Origin: Myxococcota bacterium
GTDB lineage: Bacteria > Myxococcota_A > Polyangia > Polyangiales > Houyiibacteriaceae
Length of the DNA stretch: 64,000 bases
Direction: 5' to 3'
Assembly: GCA_039030295.1 (NCBI GenBank)
Contig: JBCCEK010000003.1
Coordinates: forward strand, 180 to 64,179
Made by a program: the position numbers and the translations under genes. The notes beneath the pieces were generated by a model. That model worked only from the letters and a program-made list of their open reading frames with translations, was not told the origin of the DNA and did not search any database. Position 1 is the stretch's first letter. Every line of letters begins with the position of its first letter. Of this stretch, positions 27,131-53,542 are shown piece by piece.

Positions 27131-27187
27131 GCCAAGCCGCTCGAAAAACCACACGATCTCGAGGTCGTCTCGGGTTAGGCTCGCCCC

Positions 27188-32120: not shown

Positions 32121-32180
32121 CGAAAAAGTTGGTAAATATGGAAAAAACGACATCTAGATATGCAATAATGAATAGCTAGA
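32121..32180. promoter_or_regulatory. AT-rich divergent promoter with TCTAG-N18-CTAGA inverted repeat
   Basis: A strongly AT-rich stretch in GC-rich DNA. Arms lie at 32153-32157 and 32176-32180, abutting the LysR ATG (32180). This is the usual place for LysR autoregulatory sites. Confidence 0.35.
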
Positions 32181-33058
32181 TGCCTGAGGACTTCGACTGG
32201 GATCCGCTTCGGGTGTTCGTCGCGGCTGCGGATACCGGCTCCCTGTCGGGCGCCGCGCGTGAGGTCGGGGTGAGCCAACCGACAGCTGGGCGGCAAGTCC
32301 AAGCGCTTGAGTCACAGCTCGGCGTGCAACTCTTCGCCCGAACTTCGCGCGGACTTCAACTCACCGACACCGGCATGGCGCTCCTCGAGCACGCGCGCAC
32401 GATGGCCGCGGCTGCCAACCGACTCGCCCTCGCCGCGCAAGGCCAGGCCGAGAGCGTCGCTGGCGTCGTTCGAATCACTGCGAGCGAGGTCGTCGCCACC
32501 TATACGTTGCCCCCGGTCCTCGTTGAGCTCCGAGCGGCCGAGCCCGAGATCGAAATCGAGCTCGTGGCGTCGAACGCGACGGAGAACCTACTCGAACGCG
32601 AGGCTGACATTGCCGTGCGGATGTACAGGCCGACGCAAGCCGACGTCATCACGCGAAGCATCGGAGAGATCGGCGTCGGCGCCTACGCAGCCGAGTCGTA
32701 CATCGCCCGTCATGGTTGCCCCATCGAGCCCGAAGATCTCCTAGAGCATGACGTGGTGGGCTACGACCGGGACGACACGACAATTCGCGGTTTTCGCATG
32801 GCTGGAGTGGAAGTGACACGACGGTTCTTTCCCGTGCGCACCGACGACCAAGTCTTGGCGTGGCATCTGGTCGTGGCGGGCTATGGGATCGGTTTCATGC
32901 AGGTTCAGATCGGTGACGCCGAGCCCAAGGTGCGCCGCGTATTGCCCGACCTGTCGCTGCCCACGCTTCCGATGTGGTTGACGGCGCACTCGGAGCTCAA
33001 GACGAACCGACGTATTCGGCGAGTCTACGATTTCCTTGCCGAGGCCCTCGCGCGCTAG
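32180..33058 (+). CDS. LysR family transcriptional regulator
   Basis: HTH AADTGSLSGAAREVGVSQPTAGRQVQALE. Its TAG stop and the convergent PMK stop share the palindrome CTAG at 33055-33058. Confidence 0.85.
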   Translation: MPEDFDWDPLRVFVAAADTGSLSGAAREVGVSQPTAGRQVQALESQLGVQLFARTSRGLQLTDTGMALLEHARTMAAAANRLALAAQGQAESVAGVVRITASEVVATYTLPPVLVELRAAEPEIEIELVASNATENLLEREADIAVRMYRPTQADVITRSIGEIGVGAYAAESYIARHGCPIEPEDLLEHDVVGYDRDDTTIRGFRMAGVEVTRRFFPVRTDDQVLAWHLVVAGYGIGFMQVQIGDAEPKVRRVLPDLSLPTLPMWLTAHSELKTNRRIRRVYDFLAEALAR

Positions 33059-34050
33059 CGCGAAGACGCTGCTCGACCAGCTGACACGTCGTCACCGTAG
33101 TCGCGGCGCCTGGGTTCATCCGCACGGACGCCTGGCACGCCCCACGGGAGGTCGATTGGAACGAGCCCGTGTCCGGAGCATCGTTCGAGGAACGAAGCAC
33201 GCGCGCCCGGATCCGAGAAGAACGCCACTGCCGCATCACCGCCTCCTGCGCCGCAGGGTTTCGCGGCTCCTCCTTCGAGGGCCGCCCATTCCGCGACGGC
33301 GTCGAGCTCACGAGTCACGATCGGGGCCCCGGTGTGGTTCCCAAGGCCCCGCATCGCCTCGTGGTACTGCGCCGCGCAACGGATCACGGATCTCACATCG
33401 CCTTCTCGGAACGCGCGCGCGAACGCGCTCCCAAGCTCGACAAGCGAGGCCATGAGCCGCGCGTATCGGGACGCGTCCCGGACTTGGAGGGCCTTGACGC
33501 GGGAGACCAGATCGGATGTACGCACCGGACTCGCGGTCCAGACCAGCGCCGGCGCCAACGACGCGGGACCCCTCACGGGGGAGGCATCGACGACCGCGTC
33601 TTCGCCGATGCGAAACTCGAGGAAGCCACCGTAGGTCGAGGCGGCCACGTCGACCCCGCTCCCCTCGGGCGCGACGGCGCGGTGTCCCTCGAGCGCAGCC
33701 GCGAACACGCGGTCGCGAATGCCGGGCTCGTCGAGGTCGAACCCTCGCGCCACCGCCACCGCTGCCGCGGCCCCGACTGCTGCTGCCGCCGACGACCCAA
33801 GGCCGAGCTTTTTCCCGTCTCGAAAAAGGGCGCTTGCATCGAACCGCAACGGAGGTGTGATCTTCCCGAACTCGCGCTCCGATGCGGCCGTGGCTGCGAC
33901 CGCCTCTGGGCCTGGTCGATGGTACGCCGTCGATGGTGGTTCTCTTTCGACACGCAGCCGTCGCCCGACGGCGGCGACGACCGCGGTTCCACCCTCGAGT
34001 ACGCCGTACTCGCCGCAGAGAAGGGCCTTCCCGGGGGCGGAGATCAACAA
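33055..34050 (-). CDS. mvaK2: Phosphomevalonate kinase (GHMP kinase)
   Basis: SAPGKALLCGEYGVLEG, and the GHMP motif KLGLGSSAAA. Start assigned to TTG 34050 or 34047, overlapping the upstream TGA. The long ORF-track N-terminus overlaps the decarboxylase and was rejected. Confidence 0.8.
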   Translation of the reverse strand: MLISAPGKALLCGEYGVLEGGTAVVAAVGRRLRVEREPPSTAYHRPGPEAVAATAASEREFGKITPPLRFDASALFRDGKKLGLGSSAAAAVGAAAAVAVARGFDLDEPGIRDRVFAAALEGHRAVAPEGSGVDVAASTYGGFLEFRIGEDAVVDASPVRGPASLAPALVWTASPVRTSDLVSRVKALQVRDASRYARLMASLVELGSAFARAFREGDVRSVIRCAAQYHEAMRGLGNHTGAPIVTRELDAVAEWAALEGGAAKPCGAGGGDAAVAFFSDPGARASFLERCSGHGLVPIDLPWGVPGVRADEPRRRDYGDDVSAGRAASSR

Positions 34051-35036
34051 ACGGAGACCTCGATGCCTGGCCCAGGAGACGCGACGATCACATCGTGCAC
34101 GCCTGGCGTCTGCCGGAGCGCTGCCCGGACTTCCGAGGCGTCCTTCGCTTCGCAAAGTGTCTTGACGTGAGGCCCGGCGTCCATCGTCGCCCATGCCGAC
34201 ACCCCGTCCGACCGAAGCGAACGGACCGTACGAAGCGCCGCTACGGTGCCGGGCCCCCAGTAGAGGACGCTCGGCCGCGACGTCATCGCGCAGGCATGAA
34301 ACGCCATCGTGCTTTGTTCCATCGCCTCGCCTAGCGTCGTCAGATCTTTCTCCCGAACCGCGGTTCTGATCGTTTCGAAGAGCTCGGGGGCAGACTCGAT
34401 CCACGCGTGGTAGAGCGGCGACGTGTTGCGGGAGGCCGTCATCGCTTCCGTGGATCCAATCGCCTTGGGCCCGCGCTCGGTCAGTGCGACCAATAGGCGA
34501 ACGTCCCAGTGGTCCGCGGGCGCAAGCTGCACGGCGTGAAGCAGGTCGTCTCCGGGAATCCCGGCGCCGAGCTCGACGAAACCTCCGAAGATCGACCGGG
34601 CTGCGGATGCGCTCGACCTCCGGGCCAACGCGCTCAGAGCACCGTGCGGCAGTGTCTTGGCAGCCGCGGCTGTTGAGGCAGCAGCCAGGGCCGCGAAGCC
34701 CGAGGCGCTCGAAGCCAGGCCCGCGGCGGTCGGGAACCTATTGATACTCTCGACCCGTGCGTGGCAACTCAAGCCAGAGATCGCCCGCGTCCGGTCGAGG
34801 AGTCCCGTCACCCGCCGAGTCTCGCTTGCCGACCCCGGTCGGCCATCGAGGATCAACTCGTCTTGGGATAACGTTGGGTCGAAATAGACCTCGGTCTCGG
34901 TGACCAACTCGCCGAGGGTCAACGACAGGCTCGGGACCGCGGGTAGGTTGTAGACGCGGTCACTTTTGCCCCAGTACTTCGCGAGCGCGATGTTCGAGCA
35001 TGCGACCGCGCGCCCCACACTCGCCTCACGCAGCAT
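34044..35036 (-). CDS. mvaD: Diphosphomevalonate decarboxylase
   Basis: ACSNIALAKYWGK, FPTAAGLASSASGFAA. Start ATG 35036 overlaps the mevalonate kinase stop by 11 nt. Confidence 0.9.
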   Translation of the reverse strand: MLREASVGRAVACSNIALAKYWGKSDRVYNLPAVPSLSLTLGELVTETEVYFDPTLSQDELILDGRPGSASETRRVTGLLDRTRAISGLSCHARVESINRFPTAAGLASSASGFAALAAASTAAAAKTLPHGALSALARRSSASAARSIFGGFVELGAGIPGDDLLHAVQLAPADHWDVRLLVALTERGPKAIGSTEAMTASRNTSPLYHAWIESAPELFETIRTAVREKDLTTLGEAMEQSTMAFHACAMTSRPSVLYWGPGTVAALRTVRSLRSDGVSAWATMDAGPHVKTLCEAKDASEVRAALRQTPGVHDVIVASPGPGIEVSVC

Positions 35037-35943
35037 GACCGAGCTCCTCGACGAACGCATCGACGGGTAGGGTGTCTCGAACTCGGATCGCGTGATCGGC
35101 ATCTTGCGCCAACGCGATCACACAGCCTCCGCCTCCGGCGCCAGTGACTTTGGCACCCAAGGCTCCCGCGCGTCGGGCCGCCTCGCACAAGTTCTCCACC
35201 TTCGGCGTGCTCAACCCGAAGGTGCGAAGGACTCGATGGTTGCCGTCGAGCGTTCGCCCGAGTGTGTTCAAGTCACCGTCTCGGATGGCCGCTTCGGCTT
35301 GATCGACCAGGTGCCCGATCTGCTCTAGCGCGCGTCCGCTCTCGACCGGTTCCGTGCGGCAACGCTCCGCGACCGCTTCGACCATCACCTTCGTCTCCGA
35401 GCTCTCGCCGCTGTGGGCCACCACCACGTAGAACGGAGCTCGCGAGCGCACGACTTGAACCGACGACCCACGTTGAAACCGCAGGAGTCCGCCGACCGCC
35501 GCGGCCGTGTTGTCGATGCCGGAGGGCGCCCCGTGGAAAACACGCTCCCAAGACAGGGCCAACTCCGCGAGGTCGGCGCGCTCTCGACGGACTCCGAGAT
35601 ACCGGTCGACCGCGTCGATGACCGCCACGCCAAGCGCGGCAGAGCAACCGAGGCCGGCGCCCGGGGGAAGCTCTACTTCCGCGTGAACCTCGAGGGGAGG
35701 GCGTTGTCCTTGGAACGCGAGGGCGCGATCGAACGCGCGTGCCAACGGCTCACTTGCTGCGGCATTCGGCTCGACTCGAACGCCCCACGGTTCAATCGAG
35801 AGTCGATCGCGAGGCCCCAACGTGGCGCGTGCACGAACGCCGCGTCGAACACCGGCGGCGATCGCGGGTTGACCGTGTACGACCGCGTGCTCACCGACGA
35901 GGATGACCTTGCCACCCCCGAAGCCTAGAGTCCGATCGCTCAT
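35026..35943 (-). CDS. mvk: Mevalonate kinase
   Basis: GGGKVILVGEHAVVHG, PPGAGLGCSAALGVA, KVTGAGGGGC. ATG 35943 lies 1 nt after the upstream stop. Confidence 0.9.
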   Translation of the reverse strand: MSDRTLGFGGGKVILVGEHAVVHGQPAIAAGVRRGVRARATLGPRDRLSIEPWGVRVEPNAAASEPLARAFDRALAFQGQRPPLEVHAEVELPPGAGLGCSAALGVAVIDAVDRYLGVRRERADLAELALSWERVFHGAPSGIDNTAAAVGGLLRFQRGSSVQVVRSRAPFYVVVAHSGESSETKVMVEAVAERCRTEPVESGRALEQIGHLVDQAEAAIRDGDLNTLGRTLDGNHRVLRTFGLSTPKVENLCEAARRAGALGAKVTGAGGGGCVIALAQDADHAIRVRDTLPVDAFVEELGHAA

Positions 35944-35944
35944 G

Positions 35945-37063
35945 CTACGTGCGGCGGACGGTGAGCTTGTCGGCCAGTTCCTCGAGCATTCCGAGCCCTT
36001 GCGGATTGAAGAGATCAGCACCTACTGCACAGCGAGCTTCGTCGCATAGCCCGGCAATCCTCAGCTCGAGTCGCTCAACGACCTCCGTTTCCCGGAGGCA
36101 TTGCTGTGCCAAGGCCAGCTCCTCGCTCGTGGCGTTGCGGTTCCCGAAGACCGACTCGACTGGCTGCCGAGTCGCCAGTTCGGTCGTGCTACGAAGCTCC
36201 GCCATGACACTGCTCAGCTTCCCGTGAGGGATGTCCATCCCGGGCTTGCCTGTGTCCTCCGCATCGCCGAGGGCTCCAAGCAGGTCGTCGCGGATCTGAA
36301 ACGCTTCGCCGATCGGGTTCGCCCAAGCGGTCAGTGCGGCGATCTGCTCCGCGGTCGGATTTCCGAGGAGTGCACCGAGGATGAGTGGACCTCTCACCGA
36401 GTAGCTGGTGGTCTTGAGGGCGTGCATTCGAGACACGTCTGGGTCGCCCGTGAGATCGAGTTGCTGACCGCAGTAGACCTGTTTTTGAAGCTCGATGAAG
36501 GCGCGCTGTGCGTCCGTCCACGATTGCATGGGAAAGGGCGCCTCGACGAAAAGCTCCCACGCATAGGTCGAAGCGAGGTCTCCCGCGAGAACGCCGAGTG
36601 CAGCGCCGAGATGCACGTCGTCGTGACGGTGTTGAAGACTCGCATGCACCGCCGCCCCTCCTCGACGTACTTCGTCTCCGTCCATCCAGTCGTCGTGGAT
36701 GAGCAGATAGCTCTGCAGCAGTTCGAGCGATGCGCTGAGGTCGACCAGTCGGTCCATCCCGTGCCCGGGACGGACGCATCGGTATCCGGCTGCGGCGACG
36801 GCAGGTCGGAGCCGCTTCCCGCCTCGCATGGTCAGCGCCTCGATCTCCTCCACCAACTCGAGCGTGGGCGGCGAGACGTTCTTCGTCTCACGGCGCTTGT
36901 CATCAAAGAACTCCGCAAGGTGCACGTCTACCTCGAGTCGCACGATCTGCAGCCAGTGCGTCGGTCGCGACCCGAGACGCGGGGAGTCCCCGGTCGATGC
37001 CGCGCGATCGAGTTCACGCTGGCGGTACTTGGGTACGACCTCGGTCAGTTGGGATGCTCTCAT
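35945..37063 (-). CDS. Polyprenyl diphosphate synthase, probable farnesyl diphosphate synthase
   Basis: First Asp-rich motif LLIHDDWMDGD, second FQIRDDLLG. Tyr lies five residues before the first motif. ATGA overlap with the cyclase stop. Confidence 0.8.
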   Translation of the reverse strand: MRASQLTEVVPKYRQRELDRAASTGDSPRLGSRPTHWLQIVRLEVDVHLAEFFDDKRRETKNVSPPTLELVEEIEALTMRGGKRLRPAVAAAGYRCVRPGHGMDRLVDLSASLELLQSYLLIHDDWMDGDEVRRGGAAVHASLQHRHDDVHLGAALGVLAGDLASTYAWELFVEAPFPMQSWTDAQRAFIELQKQVYCGQQLDLTGDPDVSRMHALKTTSYSVRGPLILGALLGNPTAEQIAALTAWANPIGEAFQIRDDLLGALGDAEDTGKPGMDIPHGKLSSVMAELRSTTELATRQPVESVFGNRNATSEELALAQQCLRETEVVERLELRIAGLCDEARCAVGADLFNPQGLGMLEELADKLTVRRT

Positions 37064-39036
37064 GACAGTCTCCGTGGGCTATCAGGACCTGCGTCCGCCC
37101 GGTGTTTGAGCGCGAGCGCCATGACCGGGAAGTACTGCCGGTACAGGCGGTAGTTGAGGAGGGCGGTCTCGAAGAAGACCCCCACGAATTCGTCGTCTCT
37201 CCAGAGGCCTGATGACTGCTGGCGTCGTTCAAGCCACGCGGCGGCCCTCTCGATGGCGTTCCGATCCGGTTCGTTGGCTTCGATGAGGGTGATCATCGCC
37301 CACGCGGTTTGAACCACCGAACCTTGCGACGCTTGCACGTAGCCCCGGCTCGGGCCGCTCGTGTAGTCCTCGCCCCAAGCGCCGTCGCTTCTTTGGTGTG
37401 AGAGGAGCCAACGGCAAGCATCGCGAACGTGAGCGTCGGTAGCGGGAACACCGGCTGCCAGCAACCCTCGAACGCCAAACATCGTCCCGTAGATGAAGTG
37501 CACGCCCCACGCGGCGTCCCAAGTGCCGTCGTTGTTCTGGACGCGTCGAAGAAGGTCACCTGCACGCGTGATCGCAGCGTCGAGGCGCACGCGCATGAGG
37601 TCCGGGTAGTGTCTTCGCAGGTCGCTTAGCGCCATCAGGCAAGAGGCCGTGCATTCGACGTACGAGCGCTCGGTCATGCAGCGTCCGAACATCTCAGCGG
37701 GGTTCATCCATTCGAGTGGGAATCGCGTCTTTGCGGGTTCGTAGCTTCCAAAACCCCCGTCGTGGTTCTGGCAGCGAAGGATGAAGCGTGCTGCCCTGGC
37801 GGCGTTCTCCTTGCCGATCGCCTCGGGCCGTGTCCGCAAGAGCCCGATCAACGCCTCGGCCGTGCAGTCGCTCACTGGCCAGCCGTGGCCGACTTCGGAG
37901 AAGCACCAACCGCCATTCGGTTGGATCCGATGGGCCGCCTCGTAGTCGTACGCTGCGGCGCCCACCTGTTGTGAGGCGAGGAACGCGGCGCTCCGCGAGA
38001 CGGACTCGCTGCAATCGACGTGCGCGACTTCCGAGAGCGCTTGGAGCGCGAACGCCGTGTCCCAACACACGCTTCCGGCTCCTGCGACGCGCGAGCCCTC
38101 GTTCGCGTCCTCCCAGAACCAATCTTCGAATCGGTCCGTCGCGCGCTCGAGGTGCGGGTCAGCCGGGTTCTCCGCCCACAGTGCCAGCATGATCAGAAGC
38201 CCGTTCACAGGCGAAAGACCGAGGTAATCGCTTGCGCGAAGATGGGCGCGCATGTCGGCGAGGAGACGTGTCGTGAGCGTACGGCGAAGCCGGCGCGAGT
38301 GAACTCGGTCGTAGCCGCGTGCGACGGCGAACACAGCGCGAAGCGCCGGCCCTGCCGCAAAGGGGGCGTCCTCAGGTCGAATGTCGTTGCGGTAGCGGGC
38401 GAATGAAACCCGAGCGAAGCGCCCCCCGTAGAGCTCGTTCTCGAGCTCGTCGACCACCGGCCCTCGCTCGGCGACGAAGCGCCTGCCGAACAGGACCGCG
38501 AGCCCAAGGTAGATCTGACGGGTGTGGCAGTAGTAGTTCGAAGGGTGCAGGGGCACCCACTCCGGGAGCGCCCACGCCTCGGGAACGATCGGGTTCACCC
38601 CGTCCCAGTCGTAGAGCCCAAGGGTCGCCAACCAGACTTTTCCCCAAGTCGGGATCCGCTCCACACGCTCTGAGGCGAAGAGGCGTCGCGCGTCTTCGAG
38701 CCAAGGCGTTTCGGCCGGGGCGCCCAGAATCCGTGCCGCGACGTACACCAACGTGGTCACGTAGAGGTTCCCGTCATCGTACGGGTGGAGCCCCCATAAA
38801 CCCGAGTCGTGCCGAGTGACCCTGAACTGGGTCAGGAGTCCCGCTCGTCGCTCATCACCAAGCTCCTGCTTCATGATGTGCGACGCGATCGCGTACTGGG
38901 CCGCGAGCATGGGGTTCCATACGCACTCGCCTTCCCAGCTCCCGTCGTCCCTTTGGAGGCGGATCAGCGCGTCGAGGCCTCGATCCAGAGGCGTCTGTGC
39001 GTGAATCGAAAGATGGGTTGTTGCCGCGGCAGGCAT
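37060..39036 (-). CDS. Oxidosqualene cyclase (lanosterol/cycloartenol synthase type)
   Basis: Catalytic GWPVSDCTAEAL (the OSC-type VxDCTAE, not the hopene-cyclase DxDDTA). WDTAFALQAL, and repeated QW-type motifs (e.g. RLQRDDGSWEG, RCQNHDGGFG, RVQNNDGTW, SHQRSDGAWGE). Start ATG 39036 lies 5 nt after the HMGR stop. The Arg-rich 217-aa ORF extension was rejected. Confidence 0.9.
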   Translation of the reverse strand: MPAAATTHLSIHAQTPLDRGLDALIRLQRDDGSWEGECVWNPMLAAQYAIASHIMKQELGDERRAGLLTQFRVTRHDSGLWGLHPYDDGNLYVTTLVYVAARILGAPAETPWLEDARRLFASERVERIPTWGKVWLATLGLYDWDGVNPIVPEAWALPEWVPLHPSNYYCHTRQIYLGLAVLFGRRFVAERGPVVDELENELYGGRFARVSFARYRNDIRPEDAPFAAGPALRAVFAVARGYDRVHSRRLRRTLTTRLLADMRAHLRASDYLGLSPVNGLLIMLALWAENPADPHLERATDRFEDWFWEDANEGSRVAGAGSVCWDTAFALQALSEVAHVDCSESVSRSAAFLASQQVGAAAYDYEAAHRIQPNGGWCFSEVGHGWPVSDCTAEALIGLLRTRPEAIGKENAARAARFILRCQNHDGGFGSYEPAKTRFPLEWMNPAEMFGRCMTERSYVECTASCLMALSDLRRHYPDLMRVRLDAAITRAGDLLRRVQNNDGTWDAAWGVHFIYGTMFGVRGLLAAGVPATDAHVRDACRWLLSHQRSDGAWGEDYTSGPSRGYVQASQGSVVQTAWAMITLIEANEPDRNAIERAAAWLERRQQSSGLWRDDEFVGVFFETALLNYRLYRQYFPVMALALKHRADAGPDSPRRLS

Positions 39037-39041
39037 CGGTC

Positions 39042-40250
39042 CTACTCCGCGGCGGCGATCTCGAATCGCCGTGCGTGCAGATTCATGTGCCCGCTCTGGA
39101 TCCCCTCGGACGCCAGTGCGGAGAGCGCGCCGAGGTTCTGCGCCAACCCCACGGCCGCCATCACCATCGCGAGCTCGCCTGCAGTGTCGACGTTGAGGAG
39201 CTTTCGGAGCACGCGAAGGGCGGGCTGGACCGAAGTAGACCCCCCGACTGTCCCCACGGCCATCGGTACTTCGATCTCGCCGTGGAGCATCCCGTCGACT
39301 TGCCACCAGCGTGTCAACGGTTCGTAGCGGCCGTGGCGGGCGGCGTAGGCGTGCGCGCCTGCTTCGAGCCCGCGCCAGTCGTTCCCGGTGGCGACGCCGA
39401 CCGCGTCGATCCCGTTCATGACGCCCTTGTTGTGCGTTGCCGCGCGGTAGGGGTCGACCGCCGCGAACTGATAGGCTTCGACGACCCCATGGGCAACTTC
39501 GGCGCCCGAGTGTCCGCGGCGTTCGAGAAGTTCTTCTTGAATCGCGCAGCTCGCCCGCGCCATTCGCCGATCGGACAGGTTGCTCAGGATCCGAAGACGC
39601 ACCCGGCCTCCCGTCAGCTCTTCGATGATCGGCGCGACGCCCTCGGCCATGTCGTTGACCAGGTTCGCGCCCATGGCGTCGCGGCAATCGACGAGCAGGT
39701 GAACGACCAGCATCGGCGGGTCTGAGTCGAGAATCCGCACTTCGAGCGACTTCGCGCCCCCGCGGCGCGCCACCATGTTGGGGTGACGGTCATTCGCGAC
39801 TTGCAGGATCCGGTCTGCCTGTCGTTCGATGGCATTGCGTGCTCCGAACGGGTCTGGCACTTCGAGAACCTGCACTTGCGCGATCATCAAGGACTCGCTC
39901 GCGGTCGCGGAGAAGCCACCCGACTCGCGGATCACACGGGCCATGTTGCTGGCCGCGGCGACTACCGAGGGTTCTTCGACGACCATCGGTACCACGTAGT
40001 CGCGCCCGTTGACCTGGAAGTTCAGCCCGAGACCCACGGGCATCTTGAGAACGCCGACGCAGTTTTCGACCATCTTGTCGGCGATCTCGGCGTCGGTCGG
40101 GTCTTCGCACCCGAGCGCAGCGAGGTCTTCTGGGTCTAGAGAGAAACGTTCCGCGAGTTGGTGATGGCGACCCGGAAGGTCAAGCCGATAGAACCCGGGA
40201 ATGCGAGAGGAGGGACGAAGCGGTGCGCGATGGCTTGCTCGATCGGTCAT
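39042..40250 (-). CDS. mvaA: HMG-CoA reductase, class II
   Basis: Near-colinear with the Pseudomonas mevalonii enzyme as recalled: VPMVVEEPSVVAAAS, DAMGAN, AAVDPYRAATHNKGVMNGIDAV, GLAQNLGALSALASEGIQSGHM. ATGA overlap with the squalene synthase stop. Confidence 0.95.
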   Translation of the reverse strand: MTDRASHRAPLRPSSRIPGFYRLDLPGRHHQLAERFSLDPEDLAALGCEDPTDAEIADKMVENCVGVLKMPVGLGLNFQVNGRDYVVPMVVEEPSVVAAASNMARVIRESGGFSATASESLMIAQVQVLEVPDPFGARNAIERQADRILQVANDRHPNMVARRGGAKSLEVRILDSDPPMLVVHLLVDCRDAMGANLVNDMAEGVAPIIEELTGGRVRLRILSNLSDRRMARASCAIQEELLERRGHSGAEVAHGVVEAYQFAAVDPYRAATHNKGVMNGIDAVGVATGNDWRGLEAGAHAYAARHGRYEPLTRWWQVDGMLHGEIEVPMAVGTVGGSTSVQPALRVLRKLLNVDTAGELAMVMAAVGLAQNLGALSALASEGIQSGHMNLHARRFEIAAAE

Positions 40251-41323
40251 GCGGCATCCATGGTGCGGGGCCCGCCGTTGGTGACCGAGTTGGCCGCCAT
40301 CAGTCGAGCGACAGGAGTCCAGAGCGACTCGTAGTCCGAGCGGAGGAGGGCATCGTCTTGGTAGCTCGCGGCGCACCGAGCGATGACCTCTTCCACTTCC
40401 GCGCGACTCACTTTGACTTCTTGGCCATCGGTGAACATCGCGTCGTTCCCGTAGGCGAGGACGACAGTCCTCACGGCGAGCCACAGAGGCAACAAGCAGA
40501 ACAGTCGGATCTCTCGATGCTCCGCCGGGATCGTCAGTGCGTACTCGAGCGCGCTGTCCAGTTTGGTGCGCGCGAGGTGGAACATCGGAAAGACCGCTCG
40601 ATGTGCAGCCGCGAGCTGATCGGGATCGAGAAGATCACGACTCCGCAGTCCTTGCTTTCGGCAAAGGGACCGAGGCACGAACGACCATCCGCGCTGCATG
40701 TCGTCGGTGATGTCTTTCAGGATGTTGACGAGCTGAAGGCCCGTACCGAACGCCTCGGCGTGCTCGTACAGCGCGGCAGACAGCTCCGATTCGGGTGACG
40801 TACCCATCTCGGCGAGGAAGAGCTCGGTCAGCATGTGACCCACCGTGCCTGCGACGAAGTAACAGTACCGTTGCAGATCGTCGCTCGTTGTTGGAGCGAC
40901 CACACCGTCGGCGTCGGCGCGTCGATGGCTGTAGATCTCCATCCCATGAGCCATCTCATCGACCCAACGAACCACGGCGTCGCGCATCGGGGCCGGCACG
41001 GTATCGAGAACGGCGATCACGCGATCGATTCGGCGGCACAGTTCGATCTCTTCGACTGGGGACCCGGCGACATCGTTCCATTGATGCCCAAACTCCGACG
41101 GATCGACCGTTCCGGCGAGCACGCCGTGGAACGCGCGGTAGCGCACACTTCGCTCGTCGAGAGAGAACGAGGCGTTGTCTTCGACCGCATCGACGATTCG
41201 GCAGAGCAGGTATCCGCACGTCACGGCCCTCCTCAGGTCTCCAGGTAGCACCTCGATCGGTCGGGAGAATGTCCGGGACACTTCCCGGAGACTGCCTGCG
41301 CAGAAGTCCCATTCAGCTGACAT
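40247..41323 (-). CDS. Squalene synthase (farnesyl-diphosphate farnesyltransferase)
   Basis: SRTFSRPI, YLLCRIVDAVED (DxxED), and NILKDITDDMQRGWSFVP (second Asp-rich box). Single-enzyme SQS type. Confidence 0.9.
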   Translation of the reverse strand: MSAEWDFCAGSLREVSRTFSRPIEVLPGDLRRAVTCGYLLCRIVDAVEDNASFSLDERSVRYRAFHGVLAGTVDPSEFGHQWNDVAGSPVEEIELCRRIDRVIAVLDTVPAPMRDAVVRWVDEMAHGMEIYSHRRADADGVVAPTTSDDLQRYCYFVAGTVGHMLTELFLAEMGTSPESELSAALYEHAEAFGTGLQLVNILKDITDDMQRGWSFVPRSLCRKQGLRSRDLLDPDQLAAAHRAVFPMFHLARTKLDSALEYALTIPAEHREIRLFCLLPLWLAVRTVVLAYGNDAMFTDGQEVKVSRAEVEEVIARCAASYQDDALLRSDYESLWTPVARLMAANSVTNGGPRTMDAA

Positions 41324-42692
41324 GCTTTTCCTCCTCGACGAAGACCTCAGTTGGGTCGTCAGGGCGTGCCCAGGATTCGGGTGCTGCCCACGACACCGAC
41401 CGTTGCCGCATCAAACTCTGGCTCGGGTGAACGCTCGCCCACGGCCACCGAAGCCAGCCCGCGAGCTCGCGCGCCGTGGCGGCGTCAGAAAGAAGCACCC
41501 CGGCGCCGGCTCGCAGTGCAACGCGTGAGAAGGCCCGAACGAAATCGACTCGGCTCGTCGTAGCCGCGCCAAGCAGATCCATGGTTCGGTTGCGTTGCAT
41601 CGAGCTCGCGCGCCAGGTGCTGAAAATCGAGTCGCGAATCGCGATCGCCCCCACGTCCTCGCGAGCAAACGCCTGGTAAATCGCGTTCGAGAGGAGTTCC
41701 GGCACGTAGCTTTCGGCAGCCCGCTGTGCGGCATACGAGCTCAGCGAGCGGGCTCCGGCGAGGGCCTCTGCATCGAGGAGCGACATCGTGATGCCCATGG
41801 CGGTGAGCGGGTGGAACACCCCGGCCGCATCGCCGACGAGCGCCACCCCGCGGTCGGTTTGGTAGCGTCGCGGGCGGAACGTATTCGCGGCCCATCCGAT
41901 CGACGCATCTCCGGCGCCGCGACGGACGCCTTCGCGGAGCGCAGGTGGGAGCACCTCCGCGTACGACTTCCAGATCCAATCGTGGCTCTTCGTGCTTGCG
42001 CGCGCATCGTGCGGAACGTCGATGCACATCCGTACGGCGTTGTCCCCGATGCGATAGGCCAGCGCCGGCCCTGGTCCGCCCGTGATCACATGCCCGTACT
42101 CTTCGAAAGGAAGTTCGGTATCGCGCACGACCAGTCCGGCCATGACCGAGATCGAAACCTTCTCGCTGACTGCACCATCACCGAGGATCTTGCGCGCCGA
42201 GCGCCCCGTTGCGATGACGACGAGAGGTGCGTTGACCACGCGCGACTTAGACCTCTGAGTCAGCGTCACGAAGCGGCCCCGGACCTCGCTCGCGCGCACC
42301 CCTTCGAGATAGTCGACGCCTCTCGTCTGACTCACGCGCGCGCGCAGATGGGTCACCAAGGTTGCGTGTTCGCAGGAGAGACCGCGCTCGCCGCCGCCAT
42401 ACTCGAGGGTGATCGGACCGAGGCCATCGTTTGGAAACACGACGAAGCCGCGCCCGGTAGCGCCGTGCTCCAGTCCATCTAAAAGTTCGAGATTACGAAG
42501 GATTCTAGCCCCTTCGGGATGCACCCACTCCCCAGCGAAGCGCCGCGCTGCGTTCGGGTTCGACTCGACCAGGAGAACGCTCGCACCTCGCCGAGCGAAC
42601 GCCGCGGCGGTTGCGCAGCCCGCCGGTCCTGCACCGATAACCACGGTGTCGTACGCCGATCGAATGTCGCCCAAGTCGAACGTTGGCTGCAC
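41313..42692 (-). CDS. Squalene monooxygenase (epoxidase), FAD-dependent
   Basis: DTVVIGAGPAGCATA dinucleotide fold, GEWVHPEG, LVGDAAGVFHPLTAMGITMSLLDA. GTG start. Overlaps the SQS start by 11 nt. Confidence 0.85.
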   Translation of the reverse strand: MQPTFDLGDIRSAYDTVVIGAGPAGCATAAAFARRGASVLLVESNPNAARRFAGEWVHPEGARILRNLELLDGLEHGATGRGFVVFPNDGLGPITLEYGGGERGLSCEHATLVTHLRARVSQTRGVDYLEGVRASEVRGRFVTLTQRSKSRVVNAPLVVIATGRSARKILGDGAVSEKVSISVMAGLVVRDTELPFEEYGHVITGGPGPALAYRIGDNAVRMCIDVPHDARASTKSHDWIWKSYAEVLPPALREGVRRGAGDASIGWAANTFRPRRYQTDRGVALVGDAAGVFHPLTAMGITMSLLDAEALAGARSLSSYAAQRAAESYVPELLSNAIYQAFAREDVGAIAIRDSIFSTWRASSMQRNRTMDLLGAATTSRVDFVRAFSRVALRAGAGVLLSDAATARELAGWLRWPWASVHPSQSLMRQRSVSWAAPESWARPDDPTEVFVEEEKHVS

Positions 42693-43014
42693 GGTTTCCC
42701 CTGGCGCTTAGTATTCGCGCGCCGCGTCCGGCAGCTACAAGATTCGCTTCGGTGGATCGAACGTTGGTGTCGATCGTCCCAAAGCGCGCACGAACGGTTT
42801 GACAACTTCCCAATCTTTACAGCGTGTTGCGTTGCTGTACGTAGACGGATCAGCTTTACAATGCGTTGGCTATCGTGCTGTTGATCACGGTTCAATGATC
42901 GCTGCGGACCGCTGGCGAGATCTCACGAACGAGTCACACGTTTCTCGCGCTGCCAGTTACCGCGCGCGCTACAAACAATCGCGTCACATCGTCTCAAAGA
43001 GGAGAACACGTGAA
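42693..43014. promoter_or_regulatory. Divergent control region between the squalene-epoxidase operon and the HMG-CoA-synthase operon
   Basis: The only sizeable non-coding gap in the module. Exact 11-mer TCGAACGTTGG at 42676-42686 and 42757-42767. GATCGA-N9-TCGATC at 42755-42775. TTGACA at 42799-42804. Two CTTTACA..GCGTTG..TGCTGT units at 42815-42838 and 42854-42881. SD AAGAGGAG lies 10 nt before ATG 43015. Confidence 0.4.
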
Positions 43015-44112
43015 ATGAGCGCGAACCCTGCAGGCATTGCATCCATTGGTCTTCAACTTCCCAGGCTCTTCATGCCGGTGACAGAGCTCGCTGATCTTCG
43101 TGGGGTCGATCCGAACAAGTTTACAAAGGGTTTAGGCTGCGGTGAGATCGCACTTTGCGATCCCGACGAAGACGCCGTCACCTTGGCCGTTGGCGCTGCG
43201 AAACGTGCCCTCTCGCGTTGGGACGGGCTTGCCGAAGACATCGGGCTCATCGTTGTGGGCACGGAGAGTGCGAAGGACATGAGCCGTCCGCTCAGTGCTT
43301 GGGTCGCCGAGGAGCTCGGCCTCTCTGGGGGGATCCGGTCCTACGAAGTGAAGCACGCGTGCTATGGCGGAACGCTCGCGTTACGCCAGGCGCTCGAGTG
43401 GAAATGGTCGGGCGCTTCTGCAGGCAAGGCGGCGCTCGTGATCGCTTCCGACGTCGCTTTGTACTCGCTTCAAGATCCGGGCGAGCCCACGCAGGGCGCC
43501 GGGGCGGTCGCGATGATCGTAGACGAACCCCTCGTCGCACGCATCGAGAACCGCTCCTATCCGTTCAGCAGCCCGGCGTTCGACTTCTGGCGCCCGGTCG
43601 GCGATCCGTTCCCGTCCGTTGAAGGGCAGCTTAGCCTCGACTGCTACAAGCGCGCGGTCGAGGAGTGTTACGGCGCGATGGTGGGCGACCGAGATGCGCG
43701 CGCTGTCCTCGGGGCCTTCGAGGCGATGGCGTTCCACGTCCCGTTCCCGAAGATGGTCAAGAAGGCGGTCCTCCACCTGGCCGAGCAGCTCGGGTGGACC
43801 GAAGCCGAGGGTGAGGCGCTTTACGCGGAGAAGGTCGACTCGACCATGGCGTGGAACCGTTCGGTTGGAAACGCCTACACGGCGAGCCTTTGGATCTCGG
43901 TTGCCGGCACGCTCTCGGGTATGGCGGAGGGCACCCGCATGACGGCGCTCTCCTACGGATCCGGCTACGGCGCCGAGCTCCTCGAGCTGGTCGCAGGCCC
44001 TGCTGCCTCGGCTGGTGCGTGGGCAACCGACATCGAGCAGGATCTCCGTCAGCGCCGCCTGGTCGACAAAGCGACTTATGAATCTCTTCGGGGTCATGCA
44101 CGCGCGAGCTGA
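43015..44112 (+). CDS. mvaS: HMG-CoA synthase
   Basis: VGTESAKDMSRP, and the catalytic-Cys context EVKHACYGGT. Start moved to ATG 43015, which has a strong SD. Confidence 0.9.
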   Translation: MSANPAGIASIGLQLPRLFMPVTELADLRGVDPNKFTKGLGCGEIALCDPDEDAVTLAVGAAKRALSRWDGLAEDIGLIVVGTESAKDMSRPLSAWVAEELGLSGGIRSYEVKHACYGGTLALRQALEWKWSGASAGKAALVIASDVALYSLQDPGEPTQGAGAVAMIVDEPLVARIENRSYPFSSPAFDFWRPVGDPFPSVEGQLSLDCYKRAVEECYGAMVGDRDARAVLGAFEAMAFHVPFPKMVKKAVLHLAEQLGWTEAEGEALYAEKVDSTMAWNRSVGNAYTASLWISVAGTLSGMAEGTRMTALSYGSGYGAELLELVAGPAASAGAWATDIEQDLRQRRLVDKATYESLRGHARAS

Positions 44113-45187
44113 GGGCCCTCGGGCGCCGTCGGATGCGGCCCTCGGTGCTCGCAAGGCCGACCACCTCGATCTCTGCGAAGGAGACGCGGTCGCATTCCGA
44201 TCGAAGACGACTCTCCTCGAGGGCGTCCGGTTTCTCCACCAGTCTCTCCCCGAGTTGGCGTCAAACGAAGTCTCCACGGAGACGCAACTCCTAGGGCGCA
44301 CGCTACGCGCTCCTATCGTGATCGCCGCGATGACCGGCGGACACGAGCGCGCGGCGTCGATCAATCGCGGGTTGGCGGCGATCGCGGAGCAGCGGGGAAT
44401 CGGCCTCGGGCTTGGAAGCCAGCGTGCCATGCAGCGGGACCCGTCGATGGAATGGACCTACAGTGTTCGCGAGTGGGCGCCGAACATCCTGCTCCTCGGG
44501 AACATTGGCGTCGTGCAGGCCCGCGAGACGCCGACACGCGACATCGAAGGGTTGGTACGCGACGTCGGGGCCGATGCGTTGTGTGTGCATCTGAATCCGG
44601 CGATGGAGCTCATTCAGTCCGATGGTGACCGCGACTTCCGCGGCTGTGTGGACGCATTGAAGCGACTCTCGAACGAGCTCTCGGTTCCGGTCGTGGCGAA
44701 GGAAACCGGGAACGGGCTCAGTCCCCAAACCATCGCAAAGCTCGTTGAGGCGGGTATTCGGTACGTCGATACGTCGGGTGCGGGTGGAACCTCGTGGGTC
44801 GGGGTCGAGACGCTGCGGGCCGACGGCGTTCGGCGCACGATCGGAGACAGCCTCTGGGACTGGGGCATCCCGACCGCTCCCTCGATCCACTATGCGCGTC
44901 AGGCCAACATGACCACGATCGCCACGGGCGGCGTCCGTTCGGGTCACGACGTCGCCCGCGCGTTGGCACTCGGGGCGTCGGCCGCAGGCATTGCGCGACC
45001 GGTGTTGCAGTCGCTCCAGCAAGGCGGCGAGGAGGGTGCACTCACGTTCATCGACGGTATCGTGGAGGAGCTCCGCGCAGTCATGCTGCTGACAGGCTCG
45101 GCGACCCCGGCGGCGCTTCGCGAGGCACCGAGAATCATCTCCGGTGAGCTCGATCGCTGGATGGGCGCGGCGGGCCCAACGCCATGA
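44096..45187 (+). CDS. fni: Isopentenyl-diphosphate delta-isomerase, type 2 (FMN-dependent)
   Basis: RKADHLDL, APIVIAAMTGG, VVAKETGNG, SGAGGTSW, GGVRSGHDVA. Start ATG 44096 overlaps the HMGS 3' end (alternative 44078). Confidence 0.9.
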   Translation: MHARAEGPRAPSDAALGARKADHLDLCEGDAVAFRSKTTLLEGVRFLHQSLPELASNEVSTETQLLGRTLRAPIVIAAMTGGHERAASINRGLAAIAEQRGIGLGLGSQRAMQRDPSMEWTYSVREWAPNILLLGNIGVVQARETPTRDIEGLVRDVGADALCVHLNPAMELIQSDGDRDFRGCVDALKRLSNELSVPVVAKETGNGLSPQTIAKLVEAGIRYVDTSGAGGTSWVGVETLRADGVRRTIGDSLWDWGIPTAPSIHYARQANMTTIATGGVRSGHDVARALALGASAAGIARPVLQSLQQGGEEGALTFIDGIVEELRAVMLLTGSATPAALREAPRIISGELDRWMGAAGPTP

Positions 45188-45909
45188 CGCTGCGGGCCAT
45201 CGTCGTCGACGGTGAGCCACCCGCCCGGCAGGAGCTATCGTTCCTCCTTGGGCAGTGCGACGGCGTCGAGGTCGTCGGTCGTGCGGCGGTGCCCGTCGAA
45301 GCGGAACGTCTTTGCGACGAGGTCGACCCACACGTGGCGTTCATCGATCTTCGCATGCCCGGAACCGACGGCCTCTCGTTGGCCAACGCGCTTCGTCGCC
45401 GCCATCTCGAGCTCGATGTCGTGATCGTCTCGGCCCACGATGAAGGGGCGATCCGTGGATTCGACCTTCAGATCGCGGACTACCTCCTCAAGCCGGTGAG
45501 CCTCGAGCGGCTGCGCCGCACACTCAGACACCTCGAAGACAGCCGATCCGACGCGCGCAGCCCGTTTCCGATCGAACGCTTCGCGGTACGTCGCAAGAAC
45601 GCCTATGTGGTCCTCGACCTGAAGGACGTGATCTACTTCGAGGCGCGCGACGACCTGGTTTGGGCGGTGACCGCTGACGATCGATTCGCCATCGATCGCA
45701 CGCTGGCGAGTCTGGCCGAGCACCTCGACGGCGAAGACTTTTTTCAGTCGCACCGAGGCTGCATCGTTCGGCTCGACAAGATCCGGGTGATCGAGCCTTG
45801 CGGCGCCCGCACCTTCAGGATCGTCGTCGATCACCCGGAGAGCCCCTCCGTGCCGCTCGCACGCGATCGGGTAGGCAAGCTGAGAGAACGAATTCCGTTC
45901 CTTCGCTAA
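45184..45909 (+). CDS. LytR/AlgR-family response regulator (REC + LytTR DNA-binding domain)
   Basis: REC domain with the acceptor context VAFIDLRMPGTDG. The C-terminal LytTR pattern is VVLDLKDVIYFEARDDLVWAVT...FFQSHRGCIVRLDKI. ATGA overlap with the fni stop. Confidence 0.9.
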   Translation: MTLRAIVVDGEPPARQELSFLLGQCDGVEVVGRAAVPVEAERLCDEVDPHVAFIDLRMPGTDGLSLANALRRRHLELDVVIVSAHDEGAIRGFDLQIADYLLKPVSLERLRRTLRHLEDSRSDARSPFPIERFAVRRKNAYVVLDLKDVIYFEARDDLVWAVTADDRFAIDRTLASLAEHLDGEDFFQSHRGCIVRLDKIRVIEPCGARTFRIVVDHPESPSVPLARDRVGKLRERIPFLR

Positions 45910-45918
45910 CGCACCGGC

Positions 45919-46950
45919 TCAGGCGGGTCGCTGGGCGACGAAGAAGTAGTTCGGCGTGAAGATTCCGAGCTCTCCGCCGGCGATCAACGACTCGGCGGCG
46001 TTCCCAAGCATCCGGCTGACTTCGGTCGAGCCCGGAGGCGCGATCCGAAGCCGCTCGAGGGTACGAATCGTCCGGCGTGCGATCGCACGACCGACACGCC
46101 CGCGCCGGATGGCGATCGGATTGCTGAGCTCGCCCTTGAGCGGCAAGTACCAAGGCGTCCGCGCATCGGACCTCGTTGCCGCGTCGTGGCTTTCGACGAT
46201 CTCGAAGCCGGCCTCGCGGAGTGCTTCGAGAACCTCTGGGACGGTCGCAATGTCGGGCAGGCTGTCGCCCTCTTCGATGCCCTTCTTGATCTTCTGGTGA
46301 TGCGCATTCGTGGGGTCGAAGGCGTCCGTCATGCACCACTCATACGCGGCGAACTTGCCACCCGGCTTGAGAGTCCTGAGGATCTGCTTGAACACGGCGA
46401 CCTTGTCCGGGGCATGGCACGTCGCCTCGAATGCGTACGCGGCGTCGTACGTCTCGTCAGCGACACCGAGGTTCATGAAATCGTCTTTGAACCCAGAGCA
46501 CTGGCCGGCGAGCCCGGCTTTCTGGTTGTACTGCTCGAGCTTGGTCAGCTGGTAGTCGTTGTTGTTCACGCCTTCGATCGTGGCACCCGAGAAGCGCGCG
46601 ATGGCCCGCATGGGCCCACCGACCCCGCAGCCCACGTCGAGGACCTTCATGCCCTCGTTGAGCCCCAGTCGGAGCGCAAAGAAATGCTCGGAGCGAGCCA
46701 AGGACGCATCGAACGATTCACCGTCGAAGCGGGGTGCGAAGTGAAAGGACTGGCCCCAGCCGTGCTCGTAGAAATCGGTGACCAGATCGTAGTAGTGATT
46801 GATCATGGTCGTGTAGTCGGCCTTGCGCGTCTCGACGTTCGCGCCTGACGACTCGTCGAAGAAACCGAGGTAGTCGCGAATGGCGCCGCGGACGGTGCTG
46901 CGCGTCCGCGCGTCGGAGTAGAATTGCGTTACGGCTTGCTCTTGAGTCAT
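45919..46950 (-). CDS. Sterol C-24 methyltransferase (ERG6/SMT family)
   Basis: YYDLVTDFYEHGWGQSFHFA (SMT region I), VLDVGCGVGGP (SAM site), YAFEATCHAP (region III), 343 aa. Confidence 0.9.
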   Translation of the reverse strand: MTQEQAVTQFYSDARTRSTVRGAIRDYLGFFDESSGANVETRKADYTTMINHYYDLVTDFYEHGWGQSFHFAPRFDGESFDASLARSEHFFALRLGLNEGMKVLDVGCGVGGPMRAIARFSGATIEGVNNNDYQLTKLEQYNQKAGLAGQCSGFKDDFMNLGVADETYDAAYAFEATCHAPDKVAVFKQILRTLKPGGKFAAYEWCMTDAFDPTNAHHQKIKKGIEEGDSLPDIATVPEVLEALREAGFEIVESHDAATRSDARTPWYLPLKGELSNPIAIRRGRVGRAIARRTIRTLERLRIAPPGSTEVSRMLGNAAESLIAGGELGIFTPNYFFVAQRPA

Positions 46951-51112: not shown

Positions 51113-51149
51113 CGACTCCACAGCCGACAAGTTGGTGTATGCTGCACCC

Positions 51150-53529: not shown

Positions 53530-53542
53530 TTACAATTTGTAA
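53530..53542. promoter_or_regulatory. Palindrome TTACAA-T-TTGTAA in an AT-rich patch upstream of the P450
   Basis: Located 52-64 nt upstream of the P450 ATG, inside ttctattcgttatattacaatttgtaaagttaaag, the most AT-rich stretch of this region. Confidence 0.35.

Follow-up and report, generated by a model that had tools for sequence, protein, structure and literature searches.

A conserved two-operon gene unit predicted to link the mevalonate pathway with protosterol formation, with a resident LytTR-family response regulator, in an uncultured lineage of Myxococcota

Introduction

Sterol synthesis in bacteria bears on how steranes are read as biomarkers, on a possible acquisition of the pathway by eukaryotes from myxobacteria, and on the roles of sterols in bacteria. 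Myxobacteria combine the mevalonate (MVA) pathway, squalene synthase (SQS) and eukaryote-like sterol genes for squalene monooxygenase (SQMO) and oxidosqualene cyclase (OSC), and their stage-2 genes, which act after squalene, are mostly syntenic, as stated in the part of the study by Hoshino and Gaucher considered here (2021, PMC8237579). The sterol cluster of Sandaracinus amylolyticus includes genes for isoprenoid precursors (J Bacteriol 2025, Welander laboratory, PMC12004948, Fig. 2a); the same paper catalogues 121 Osc sequences from metagenome-assembled genomes (MAGs) of Myxococcota, for which its part considered here does not describe the gene order. In sponge-associated and marine bacteria and in Calothrix, genes for OSC, squalene epoxidase (SQE), CYP51, SdmAB and sterol methyltransferase (SMT) are clustered (PMC10070321, PMC10202945), and the sterol genes of Nannocystis and Enhygromyxa are scattered (PMC10152446, PMC10202945). 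Here, we describe a locus on a stretch of 64,000 nucleotides of a Myxococcota bacterium (assembly GCA_039030295.1, contig JBCCEK010000003.1, positions 180 to 64,179; in the following the window), in which genes for ten enzymes of the mevalonate pathway and of protosterol formation, together with an eleventh gene for a LytTR-family response regulator, form a unit of about 12.9 kb.

With a probability of about 0.7, this locus is a chromosomal, vertically inherited mevalonate-plus-protosterol unit of an uncultured, Polyangiales-like lineage of Myxococcota, which is organized in two divergent, coupled operons and carries its own regulator.

Results and discussion

Gene content and conserved gene order

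An open reading frame (ORF) listing and a start-codon survey of the window recovered the ten enzyme genes of an initial annotation at the same coordinates and in the same two divergent, tightly abutting runs. The leftward run (minus strand) begins with the SQE gene (41313..42692, 459 aa, GTG start), followed by the gene of a single-enzyme SQS (40247..41323, 358 aa), which overlaps the SQE stop by 11 nt and has the ribosome-binding site GAGGAGGA upstream of its start. The gene for a class II HMG-CoA reductase (HMGR; 39042..40250, 402 aa) shares an ATGA (4 nt) with the SQS stop, and the OSC gene (37060..39036, 658 aa) follows after a gap of 5 nt. A second ATGA overlap of 4 nt joins the OSC stop to the gene of a short-chain trans-prenyl diphosphate synthase (35945..37063, 372 aa), which by its context is a farnesyl diphosphate (FPP) synthase (FPPS). 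Mevalonate kinase (MK; 35026..35943, 305 aa) is encoded 1 nt behind it, and diphosphomevalonate decarboxylase (MDD; 34044..35036, 330 aa) overlaps the MK stop by 11 nt. The run ends with a probable GHMP-type phosphomevalonate kinase (PMK; 33055..34050, 331 aa, TTG start), which overlaps the MDD stop by 7 nt, or by 4 nt if the alternative TTG start at 34047 is used. Strong ribosome-binding sites are present in front of SQS, OSC, FPPS and MDD.

On the plus strand, the rightward run starts with HMG-CoA synthase (HMGS; 43015..44112, 365 aa), which is preceded by an AGGAG ribosome-binding site and is overlapped by 17 nt by the gene for a type-2 (FMN) isopentenyl-diphosphate isomerase (IDI2; 44096..45187, 363 aa). 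The initial annotation had described the unit as one of ten genes; these are all present, but it missed an eleventh, which encodes a LytTR-family response regulator (45184..45909, plus strand, 241 aa), shares an ATGA (4 nt) with the IDI2 stop and occurs in every locus with this cassette. Between the starts of SQE and HMGS lies a divergent control region of 322 bp (42693..43014), and its length as well as all overlaps and gaps proposed earlier were borne out.

Gene calls made independently for the closest MAG (L001) yielded 458, 358, 402, 658, 372, 305, 330, 365 and 363 aa for SQE, SQS, HMGR, OSC, the prenyl synthase, MK, MDD, HMGS and IDI2, respectively. The protein lengths thus agree with those of the window within one residue, PMK excepted (331 aa in the window vs 311 aa); the PMK orthologue of L001 nevertheless shows the same 7-nt overlap with MDD. 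The junction overlaps are identical in the relatives with called genes, and the ATG of HMGS is invariant across 27 loci.

The closest relative of the cyclase (89% identity) is encoded in a MAG labelled Myxococcota bacterium (GCA_039028875.1). The next approximately 50 relatives (58-68% identity) originate from MAGs and metagenome assemblies, and a few of them carry source names, namely Myxococcota, Myxococcales or 'lanosterol synthase'. At about 50% identity, SQE-OSC fusions of Polyangium and Sandaracinaceae as well as cyanobacterial cyclases were found. The gene order was mapped by tblastn on 84 loci, for several of them also with called genes. In every locus of the OSC clade with at least 61% identity that was recovered from three collections (genome MAGs, assembly look-ups and metagenome contigs), and as far as the contigs reach, the genes for HMGS, IDI2 and the LytTR regulator run in one direction and those for SQE, SQS, HMGR, OSC and the prenyl synthase in the other. 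About 30 non-identical loci show this order (cyclase identity 61-89%); they belong to uncultured Myxococcota or Polyangiales MAGs or to unbinned contigs from marine and other metagenome samples. Counted by non-identical control regions, 27 loci are distinct, and twelve more cassette contigs were contributed by a metagenome scan. No locus recovered from this clade departs from the order, and the arrangement is beyond chance. It includes the position of HMGR between SQS and OSC, an interleaving that had been pointed out in the window and is conserved across the clade. Only the 3' end of the leftward run varies: it carries MK-MDD-PMK, often followed by a gene for a cytochrome P450, or MDD alone (L002, L004), or none of the three was mapped (L009, L016, L018). 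A 13-kb contig filed under 'uncultured Coxiellaceae' (L006) carries an SQS-HMGR-OSC-FPPS fragment with 66-77% identity.

Assignment of the enzymes

Families were assigned with Pfam and NCBIfam, and the curated NCBIfam equivalog cutoffs served as threshold. Four enzymes exceeded their cutoff. HMGR reached 397 bits with TIGR00532 (cutoff 260) and at most 50 bits with the class I models, which places it in class II. MK scored 230 bits with TIGR00549 (cutoff 163), MDD 252 bits with TIGR01240 (cutoff 171; Pfam domains MVD-like_N and MDD_C), and IDI2 372 bits with TIGR02151 (cutoff 281).

The remaining six enzymes (SQE, SQS, HMGS, OSC, PMK and the prenyl synthase) passed in Pfam and missed the NCBIfam cutoffs, and their names therefore represent the best match together with the context. 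SQE is recognized by the Pfam domain SE (PF08491, 80 bits, cutoff 20) in combination with FAD_binding_3 and the GxGxxG motif VVIGAGPAG; among solved proteins, human squalene monooxygenase (6c6n, E 7e-24) was the top relative. SQS matched Pfam SQS_PSY (161 bits) and scored higher with the NCBIfam model squal_synth (122 bits, cutoff 287) than with HpnD (66 bits) or HpnC (50 bits). Its top solved relatives are eukaryotic squalene synthases, and no hpnC, hpnD or hpnE neighbours were found beside the gene. HMGS passed the Pfam models HMG_CoA_synt_N and HMG_CoA_synt_C and obtained 255 bits with TIGR01835 (cutoff 360); the best NCBIfam match of PMK was TIGR01220 (120 bits, cutoff 166).

The prenyl synthase matched Pfam polyprenyl_synt (137 bits), and none of the NCBIfam FPPS models passed. 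In type I FPP synthases, both residues at -4 and -5 of the first Asp-rich motif are aromatic; those of type II have an aromatic residue at -5 together with an insertion of two residues. The enzyme of the window has Tyr at -5 and Leu at -4 of this motif (LQSYLLIHDDWMD) and no insertion, which departs from both types. These residues do not clearly specify FPP as the product, which is suggested by the fixed place of the gene between OSC and MK.

HMGS, HMGR, MK, PMK (as a best match under the cutoff), MDD and IDI are all present, and the classical mevalonate pathway is hence represented after the thiolase, which is absent from the window. The order MK-MDD-PMK corresponds to the mvaK1-mvaD-mvaK2 order of Gram-positive cocci. 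The profile searches agree with the ten enzyme identities that had been proposed before. The mixture of bacterial-type parts (class II HMGR, type-2 IDI) and eukaryote-type parts (SQS, SQE, OSC) also holds, and the nearest structures of the latter are eukaryotic SQS, human 6c6n and human lanosterol synthase 1w6k.

The cyclase and its product

The OSC and squalene-hopene cyclases (SHC) can be distinguished by the motif (V/I)xDCTAE, which takes the place of DxDDTA in OSC. In the cyclase of the window, the motif VSDCTAE (V388-S-D390-C-T-A-E394) aligns with V453-E459 of the human enzyme and is invariant in an alignment with 14 relatives. The score with the oxidosqualene cyclase model TIGR03463 was 669 bits (cutoff 851) vs 255 bits with the hopene cyclase model, and the general model for squalene and oxidosqualene cyclases was passed with 464 bits (cutoff 323). 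Likewise, 407 bits were obtained against human lanosterol synthase (1w6k) and 163 bits against the SHC of Alicyclobacillus. Model scores, structure scores and motif agree that the cyclase does not group with the squalene-hopene cyclases, and judged by its sequence it is an OSC and not an SHC.

Comparison with the human enzyme showed that V388 corresponds to V453, H384 to C449 and A320 to T381. A lanosterol-type product is favoured because of the Val at the position of human V453. Since human T381 and C449 are replaced by Ala and His, a product of this type is only predicted.

The control region

An alignment of the control region from 14 loci contained 87 invariant columns among 306 ungapped ones, and 73 columns were still invariant when 27 loci were aligned. 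For a neutral yardstick, we took four-fold degenerate sites in codons for invariant residues of HMGS, SQE, HMGR and IDI2 from the 14 loci. These sites are saturated, with a pairwise identity of 0.27-0.47 outside the closest relative, and only 1 of 317 was invariant across the 14 loci. Because of this difference (87/306 vs 1/317), the control region is under strong purifying selection.

The conserved positions are arranged in about 11 invariant blocks, whose spacing is fixed on the SQE side. From this side, the blocks AGTATTCG (42710), GCTACAAGATTCG (42734), GGATC, TCGATCGTCCCAAA (42770) and ACGAACGGTT (42791) are followed by a tandem direct repeat TTTAC-N5-GTTG (42816 and 42855) and by a palindrome GTTGA-N7-TCAAC (42880-42896), of which the copy in the window has one mismatch and ends with TCAAT. 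The blocks ACGAGTCAC.CGTTT (42925) and GCGCTACA (42966) and the AGGAG ribosome-binding site lie towards HMGS. In addition, the region contains two CGTTCGTG boxes and two GCTACA boxes. We read the blocks as putative protein-binding sites and promoters.

The repeat TTTAC-N5-GTTG is largely specific for this region. Two copies were present in the 64-kb window vs 0.07 expected, and in the fetched loci it was found almost solely in the control regions of the cassette. A metagenome search with a pattern composed of three blocks matched 12 contigs, and in 12 of 12 the match was situated between HMGS and SQE; a stricter pattern with 31 positions had no match in the metagenomes. The box CGTTCGTG occurs 13 times in the window, twice of these in the control region, and is only suggestive. 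A sterol regulon defined by shared motifs was considered and rejected: outside the control region, the palindrome and GCGCTACAA occur at chance level. The only copy of CTTTACA outside the control region (53538-53544, minus strand), the third in the window, lies in an AT-rich stretch about 50 nt upstream of the start of a P450 gene, and three copies in 64 kb were reached by 6 of 100 shuffled sequences. In the stretches read upstream of the SMT gene and of an ERG2-like gene, no copy of the control-region boxes was detected.

The possibility of an RNA element was also considered. No Rfam family matched the control region at E ≤ 1, and RNAalifold yielded a weak energy of -11 kcal/mol, which was similar on both strands. 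Covariation was weak with 14 as well as with 27 sequences. One long-range helix with five covarying pairs was obtained; one pair of this helix is open in 14 of the 27 sequences, and the observed number of pairs was reached by 17 of 500 shuffles. As the weak energies are similar on both strands, this signal probably stems from the palindromes in the DNA.

The LytTR-family response regulator

The eleventh gene encodes a protein with the Pfam domains Response_reg (PF00072) and LytTR (PF04397), and its best NCBIfam match is BtsR. The residues D9, D55, S83 and K103 of the receiver are intact. In every cassette locus, the gene is the third of the HMGS-IDI2 operon. Five genomic contexts of homologues with about 62-64% identity were inspected: in four of these, the gene was part of the cassette, and in one it belonged to a canonical LytS-LytT pair. 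The latter (L085, 8775-10729) comprises a homologue with 63% identity next to a LytS kinase (5TMR-LYT and His_kinase domains), and no sterol genes are located nearby.

This is most simply explained by the recruitment of a LytT-type regulator into the HMGS-IDI2 operon, where it would answer to a kinase that is encoded elsewhere. From the position of the gene and from the conserved boxes, it may tentatively be proposed that the regulator controls the divergent promoters. A somewhat more doubtful extension is a circuit of its own, in which the LytTR domain would bind the TTTAC-N5-GTTG repeat, the CGTTCGTG boxes and the palindrome, and in which the regulator would receive its phosphate from a LytS-type membrane sensor whose gene lies outside the locus. 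If this is true, the state of the membrane would set mevalonate and sterol output together, and the protein would be the first described regulator of bacterial sterol synthesis and a functional analogue of the sterol feedback control of eukaryotes. In full-text literature searches, no paper linking LytTR regulators with the mevalonate pathway was found, although the search did not cover all journals.

Transcriptional organization and proposed pathway

The five overlaps of stop and start codons and the two gaps of at most 5 nt leave no room for internal promoters or terminators in the leftward run. The overlaps and very short gaps are conserved in the relatives, as is typical of coupled operons. 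It is therefore most likely, as far as spacing can tell, that this run forms a single polycistronic mRNA whose cistrons are translationally coupled. A consensus scan detected no sigma-70 promoter inside the gene runs, which is poorly informative for a myxobacterium. Terminator-like matches were counted 16 times vs a mean of 8.9 in shuffled sequences (standard deviation 3.4); all of them are short-stemmed and only weakly above background.

We propose that the leftward operon comprises SQE-SQS-HMGR-OSC-prenyl synthase-MK-MDD-PMK and that the rightward operon, HMGS-IDI2-LytTR response regulator, would be coupled in the same manner. Together with a thiolase from elsewhere in the genome, the ten enzymes would take acetyl-CoA via isopentenyl and dimethylallyl diphosphate (IPP and DMAPP) to FPP and further via squalene and 2,3-oxidosqualene to a lanosterol-type protosterol. 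This product might then be tailored by the enzymes encoded by the neighbouring SMT gene and by the more distant ERG2-like, P450 and Rieske genes. Since HMGR and the lower mevalonate genes would be part of the same message as SQS, SQE and OSC, the supply of precursors would be stoichiometrically tied to the sterol output. The presumably co-transcribed response regulator could act on the ultra-conserved blocks of the control region, so that the unit would be autoregulated and would follow a LytS-type membrane sensor kinase whose gene lies elsewhere.

Neighbouring genes and candidates for sterol tailoring

The initial annotation had described a pathway that extends up to the first cyclized sterol. 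The respective steps are present, but the locus was undersold by this description, because an SMT gene abuts the unit and ERG2, P450 and Rieske candidates follow. The gene for the putative sterol (C-24-type) methyltransferase (45919..46950, minus strand, 343 aa) is convergent with the regulator gene and lies 9 nt beyond its stop. The protein shows the Pfam domain Sterol_MT_C (74 bits, cutoff 21.7) in addition to methyltransferase domains. It is encoded at the same position in the closest MAG L001 (97% identity) and in L034 (84%), and a homologue is present beside the regulator gene in L011/L086 and in L016.

At a distance of 6-11 kb from the cassette, three further tailoring candidates were found. 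A KshA-like Rieske oxygenase is encoded at 51024-52088 (plus strand); an assignment as SdmA was rejected, as the protein obtained 70 bits vs a cutoff of 600 and KshA is its closest solved relative. The P450 (52114-53487, minus strand) has CYP120 as its best solved relative, with CYP51 close behind; an assignment as CYP51 was rejected as unproven, since CYP120 was the best match and all scores were low. The third candidate is a protein similar to ERG2 and the sigma-1 receptor (56642-57304, plus strand). In the first part of the window, a protein of the epimerase/3-beta-hydroxysteroid dehydrogenase family that weakly resembles SdmB and HpnA (4358-5437, plus strand) and a fusion of a WS/DGAT acyltransferase with an SCP2 sterol-carrier domain at the C-terminus (11309-13141, minus strand, 610 aa) are encoded; by its domains, the fusion protein could be a steryl-ester synthase. 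From their sequences, all of these more distant genes (Rieske, P450, ERG2-like, epimerase and WS/DGAT-SCP2) are candidates for sterol genes.

On the other side of the unit, a gene for a LysR regulator (32180-33058, plus strand) converges on PMK with a stop overlap of 4 nt. It is conserved in L001 and L004 and absent from the other cassette loci. Genes for an RPE65-type carotenoid oxygenase and a zinc-type alcohol dehydrogenase follow each other at 27188-29637 (plus strand), and this pair is kept beside the cassette in L001, L002 and L004. Two long ORFs on the minus strand (25991-28585, 864 aa, and 6846-9140, 764 aa) show no clear Pfam domain. The first of them is antisense to an acyl-CoA dehydrogenase gene and to the RPE65 gene and is probably spurious, as can occur in GC-rich DNA.

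Points against the proposed reading and alternative explanations

Several points weigh against the reading as two coupled, regulated operons for a protosterol pathway. The evidence for co-transcription and coupling is the spacing of the genes, and the promoter scan gave no assignable promoter. PMK, SQS, HMGS and OSC score under the NCBIfam equivalog cutoffs. Tyr and Leu at positions -5 and -4 of the prenyl synthase presumably fit an archaeal-type geranylgeranyl diphosphate (GGPP) synthase as well as an FPP synthase under the classical chain-length rules, and the Ala and His found in place of human T381 and C449 are unusual for a lanosterol synthase. As to the regulation, a tblastn search of the window and of the cassette loci with their flanks, for which the kinase of L085 was the query, revealed no LytS kinase, and hence none adjacent to the regulator. 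No known LytTR operator was demonstrated, and the regulator is linked to the control region by its position. Furthermore, the operons of L002 and L004 do not contain MK and PMK, and no homologue of MK, MDD or PMK is present downstream of the prenyl synthase in L009, L016 and L018. Because these genes are missing from the operons of some relatives, the mevalonate genes are not an indivisible unit, and the steps that are missing from these five loci must be encoded elsewhere or handled differently. The mevalonate genes may also represent the sole, housekeeping isoprenoid pathway of the organism.

If the adjacency of the genes is real but they are transcribed as several units from internal promoters, the regulator could have an unrelated target and be present by chance or as a passenger. 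The negative promoter scan proves little in this respect, since the sigma-70 consensus describes myxobacterial promoters poorly; the strong ribosome-binding sites before SQS, OSC, FPPS and MDD would permit independent initiation, and the variable presence of MK-MDD-PMK suggests modularity. Such an organization is nevertheless unlikely, because even loci with saturated synonymous sites share the overlaps of 4-17 nt and the gaps of at most 5 nt. The 4-nt overlap of the regulator gene with IDI2 in every cassette locus with called genes, and the placement of its homologues with about 62-64% identity in the cassette in four of five contexts, likewise speak against a passenger. Even less probable is a non-sterol product of the cyclase, i.e. 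a tetracyclic or pentacyclic triterpenoid such as an arborinol-like compound, in which case the unit would not be a sterol pathway at all. Bacterial OSC homologues that form arborane-type lipids are known, and the unusual Ala and His occupy residues that separate lanosterol from cycloartenol synthases. Against this stand the DCTAE motif and the Val at the position of human residue 453, the SQE of the same operon, which would supply the epoxide, and the presence of the Sterol_MT_C methyltransferase, the ERG2/sigma-1 protein, the P450 with relatives in the CYP51 family and the KshA-like Rieske oxygenase in the same window. Taken together, these features make this explanation very improbable.

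The initial annotation had regarded the locus as a self-sufficient, potentially transferable cassette, and a mobile or recently transferred unit that moves between lineages as a whole would be another explanation. In a wide comparison, mevalonate genes accompany sterol genes in several phyla. In gammaproteobacterial MAGs of the 'Azotimanducaceae', genes for a NUDIX protein, an HMGR-MK fusion, an SdmB-like protein, a Rieske protein, ERG24, a P450, an SQE-OSC fusion, SQS and SMT are clustered (the apparent HMGR-MK fusion has 853 aa and is encoded at 1238-3799 of L027; it occurs also in L026, L030 and L031), and MAGs of Sandaracinaceae and Polyangiaceae carry FPPS, HMGR or IDI2 beside an SQE-OSC fusion. 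The flanks of the cassette also differ between the subclade nearest to the window and more distant subclades, and one cassette contig was binned as 'Coxiellaceae' (L006); this label belongs to a MAG contig of 13 kb, and a binning error is more likely than a transfer. In the window itself, mobility left no trace: no integrase or transposase domain was found among the ORFs scanned against Pfam, and the window contains no tRNA and no flanking repeat. The GC content is flat (0.63-0.67 in the unit vs 0.61-0.66 around it), and the flanks (LysR, NmrA-like, DUF3570, RPE65, SMT, permease and amidase genes) are syntenic with those of relatives; L001, L004 and L034 share the LysR, NmrA-like, DUF3570, RPE65, permease and amidase genes. 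Identities to the window amount to 88-97% in the flanks and 77-95% in the cassette for L001, and to 66-81% and 63-82%, respectively, for L004. Synteny of the flanks, together with a divergence equal to that of the cassette, points to vertical inheritance, and the missing thiolase argues against self-sufficiency. The proposal of a transferable cassette therefore found no support at this locus, and a mobile unit is improbable. In the wide comparison, there is some support for the more general notion that genes for precursor supply move together with sterol genes.

Comparison with known systems

The regulator shares the architecture of receiver and LytTR domain with the LytS/LytT systems (LytSR, BtsSR). 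Unlike these, it is part of a biosynthetic operon, and no kinase gene is adjacent to it. The mevalonate operons of Gram-positive bacteria (mvaK1-mvaD-mvaK2; mvaS; fni) exhibit the order MK-MDD-PMK, a class II HMGR, a type-2 IDI and tight overlaps. In contrast to these operons, the kinase/decarboxylase module of the window is appended to SQE-SQS-HMGR-OSC-FPPS, and HMGS-IDI2 with the regulator are arranged divergently.

The gammaproteobacterial sterol loci resemble the window in that mevalonate genes, in the form of the HMGR-MK fusion, are part of the sterol cluster. The clusters of sponge-associated and marine bacteria and of Calothrix differ from it: they occur in hosts with the methylerythritol phosphate (MEP) pathway or with partial MVA sets, they contain SQE-OSC fusions, and they comprise neither a complete route from acetyl-CoA to IPP nor a LytTR gene.

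The myxobacterial pathway described in PMC8237579 shares the enzyme set and the phylum with the window. In the part of that paper considered here, synteny is reported among the post-squalene genes; a single coupled unit in which SQS, SQE and OSC are interspersed with HMGR and the lower mevalonate genes is not described there, nor is a regulator. The cluster of S. amylolyticus was compared through proxies, namely three loci of Sandaracinaceae MAGs (L042, L054, L066). Like the window, these loci stem from Myxococcota, contain SQE, OSC and SQS clustered with FPPS and HMGR, and have ERG2 and P450 genes nearby; IDI2 is additionally present in one of them. They differ in their cyclase, which is fused to an SQE-like domain and is about 50% identical to that of the window, and in the SdmA/B-like genes inside the cluster. 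HMGS, MK, MDD and PMK are not part of these loci, nor are a LytTR regulator and a divergent HMGS-IDI2 operon.

The novelty implied earlier has to be narrowed accordingly. The combination of MVA pathway, SQS and sterol genes (PMC8237579) and a sterol cluster containing precursor genes (PMC12004948) are already published, as the parts of these papers considered here show. The unit as a whole, which is complete, interleaved and tightly coupled and has a response regulator of its own and an ultra-conserved control region, appears to be undescribed; full-text literature searches, which did not cover all journals, gave no description of this architecture. The unit represents a ready-made fragment for tests of heterologous protosterol production and a concrete example of a syntenic block that could pass in a single transfer. 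It is also plausible that the regulator and the operator-like boxes offer a first experimental handle on the control of bacterial sterol output. In the published clustered case, Sandaracinus, only some of the precursor genes accompany the sterol genes, whereas in the clade of the window the whole mevalonate route is joined with squalene synthesis, epoxidation and cyclization in one unit.

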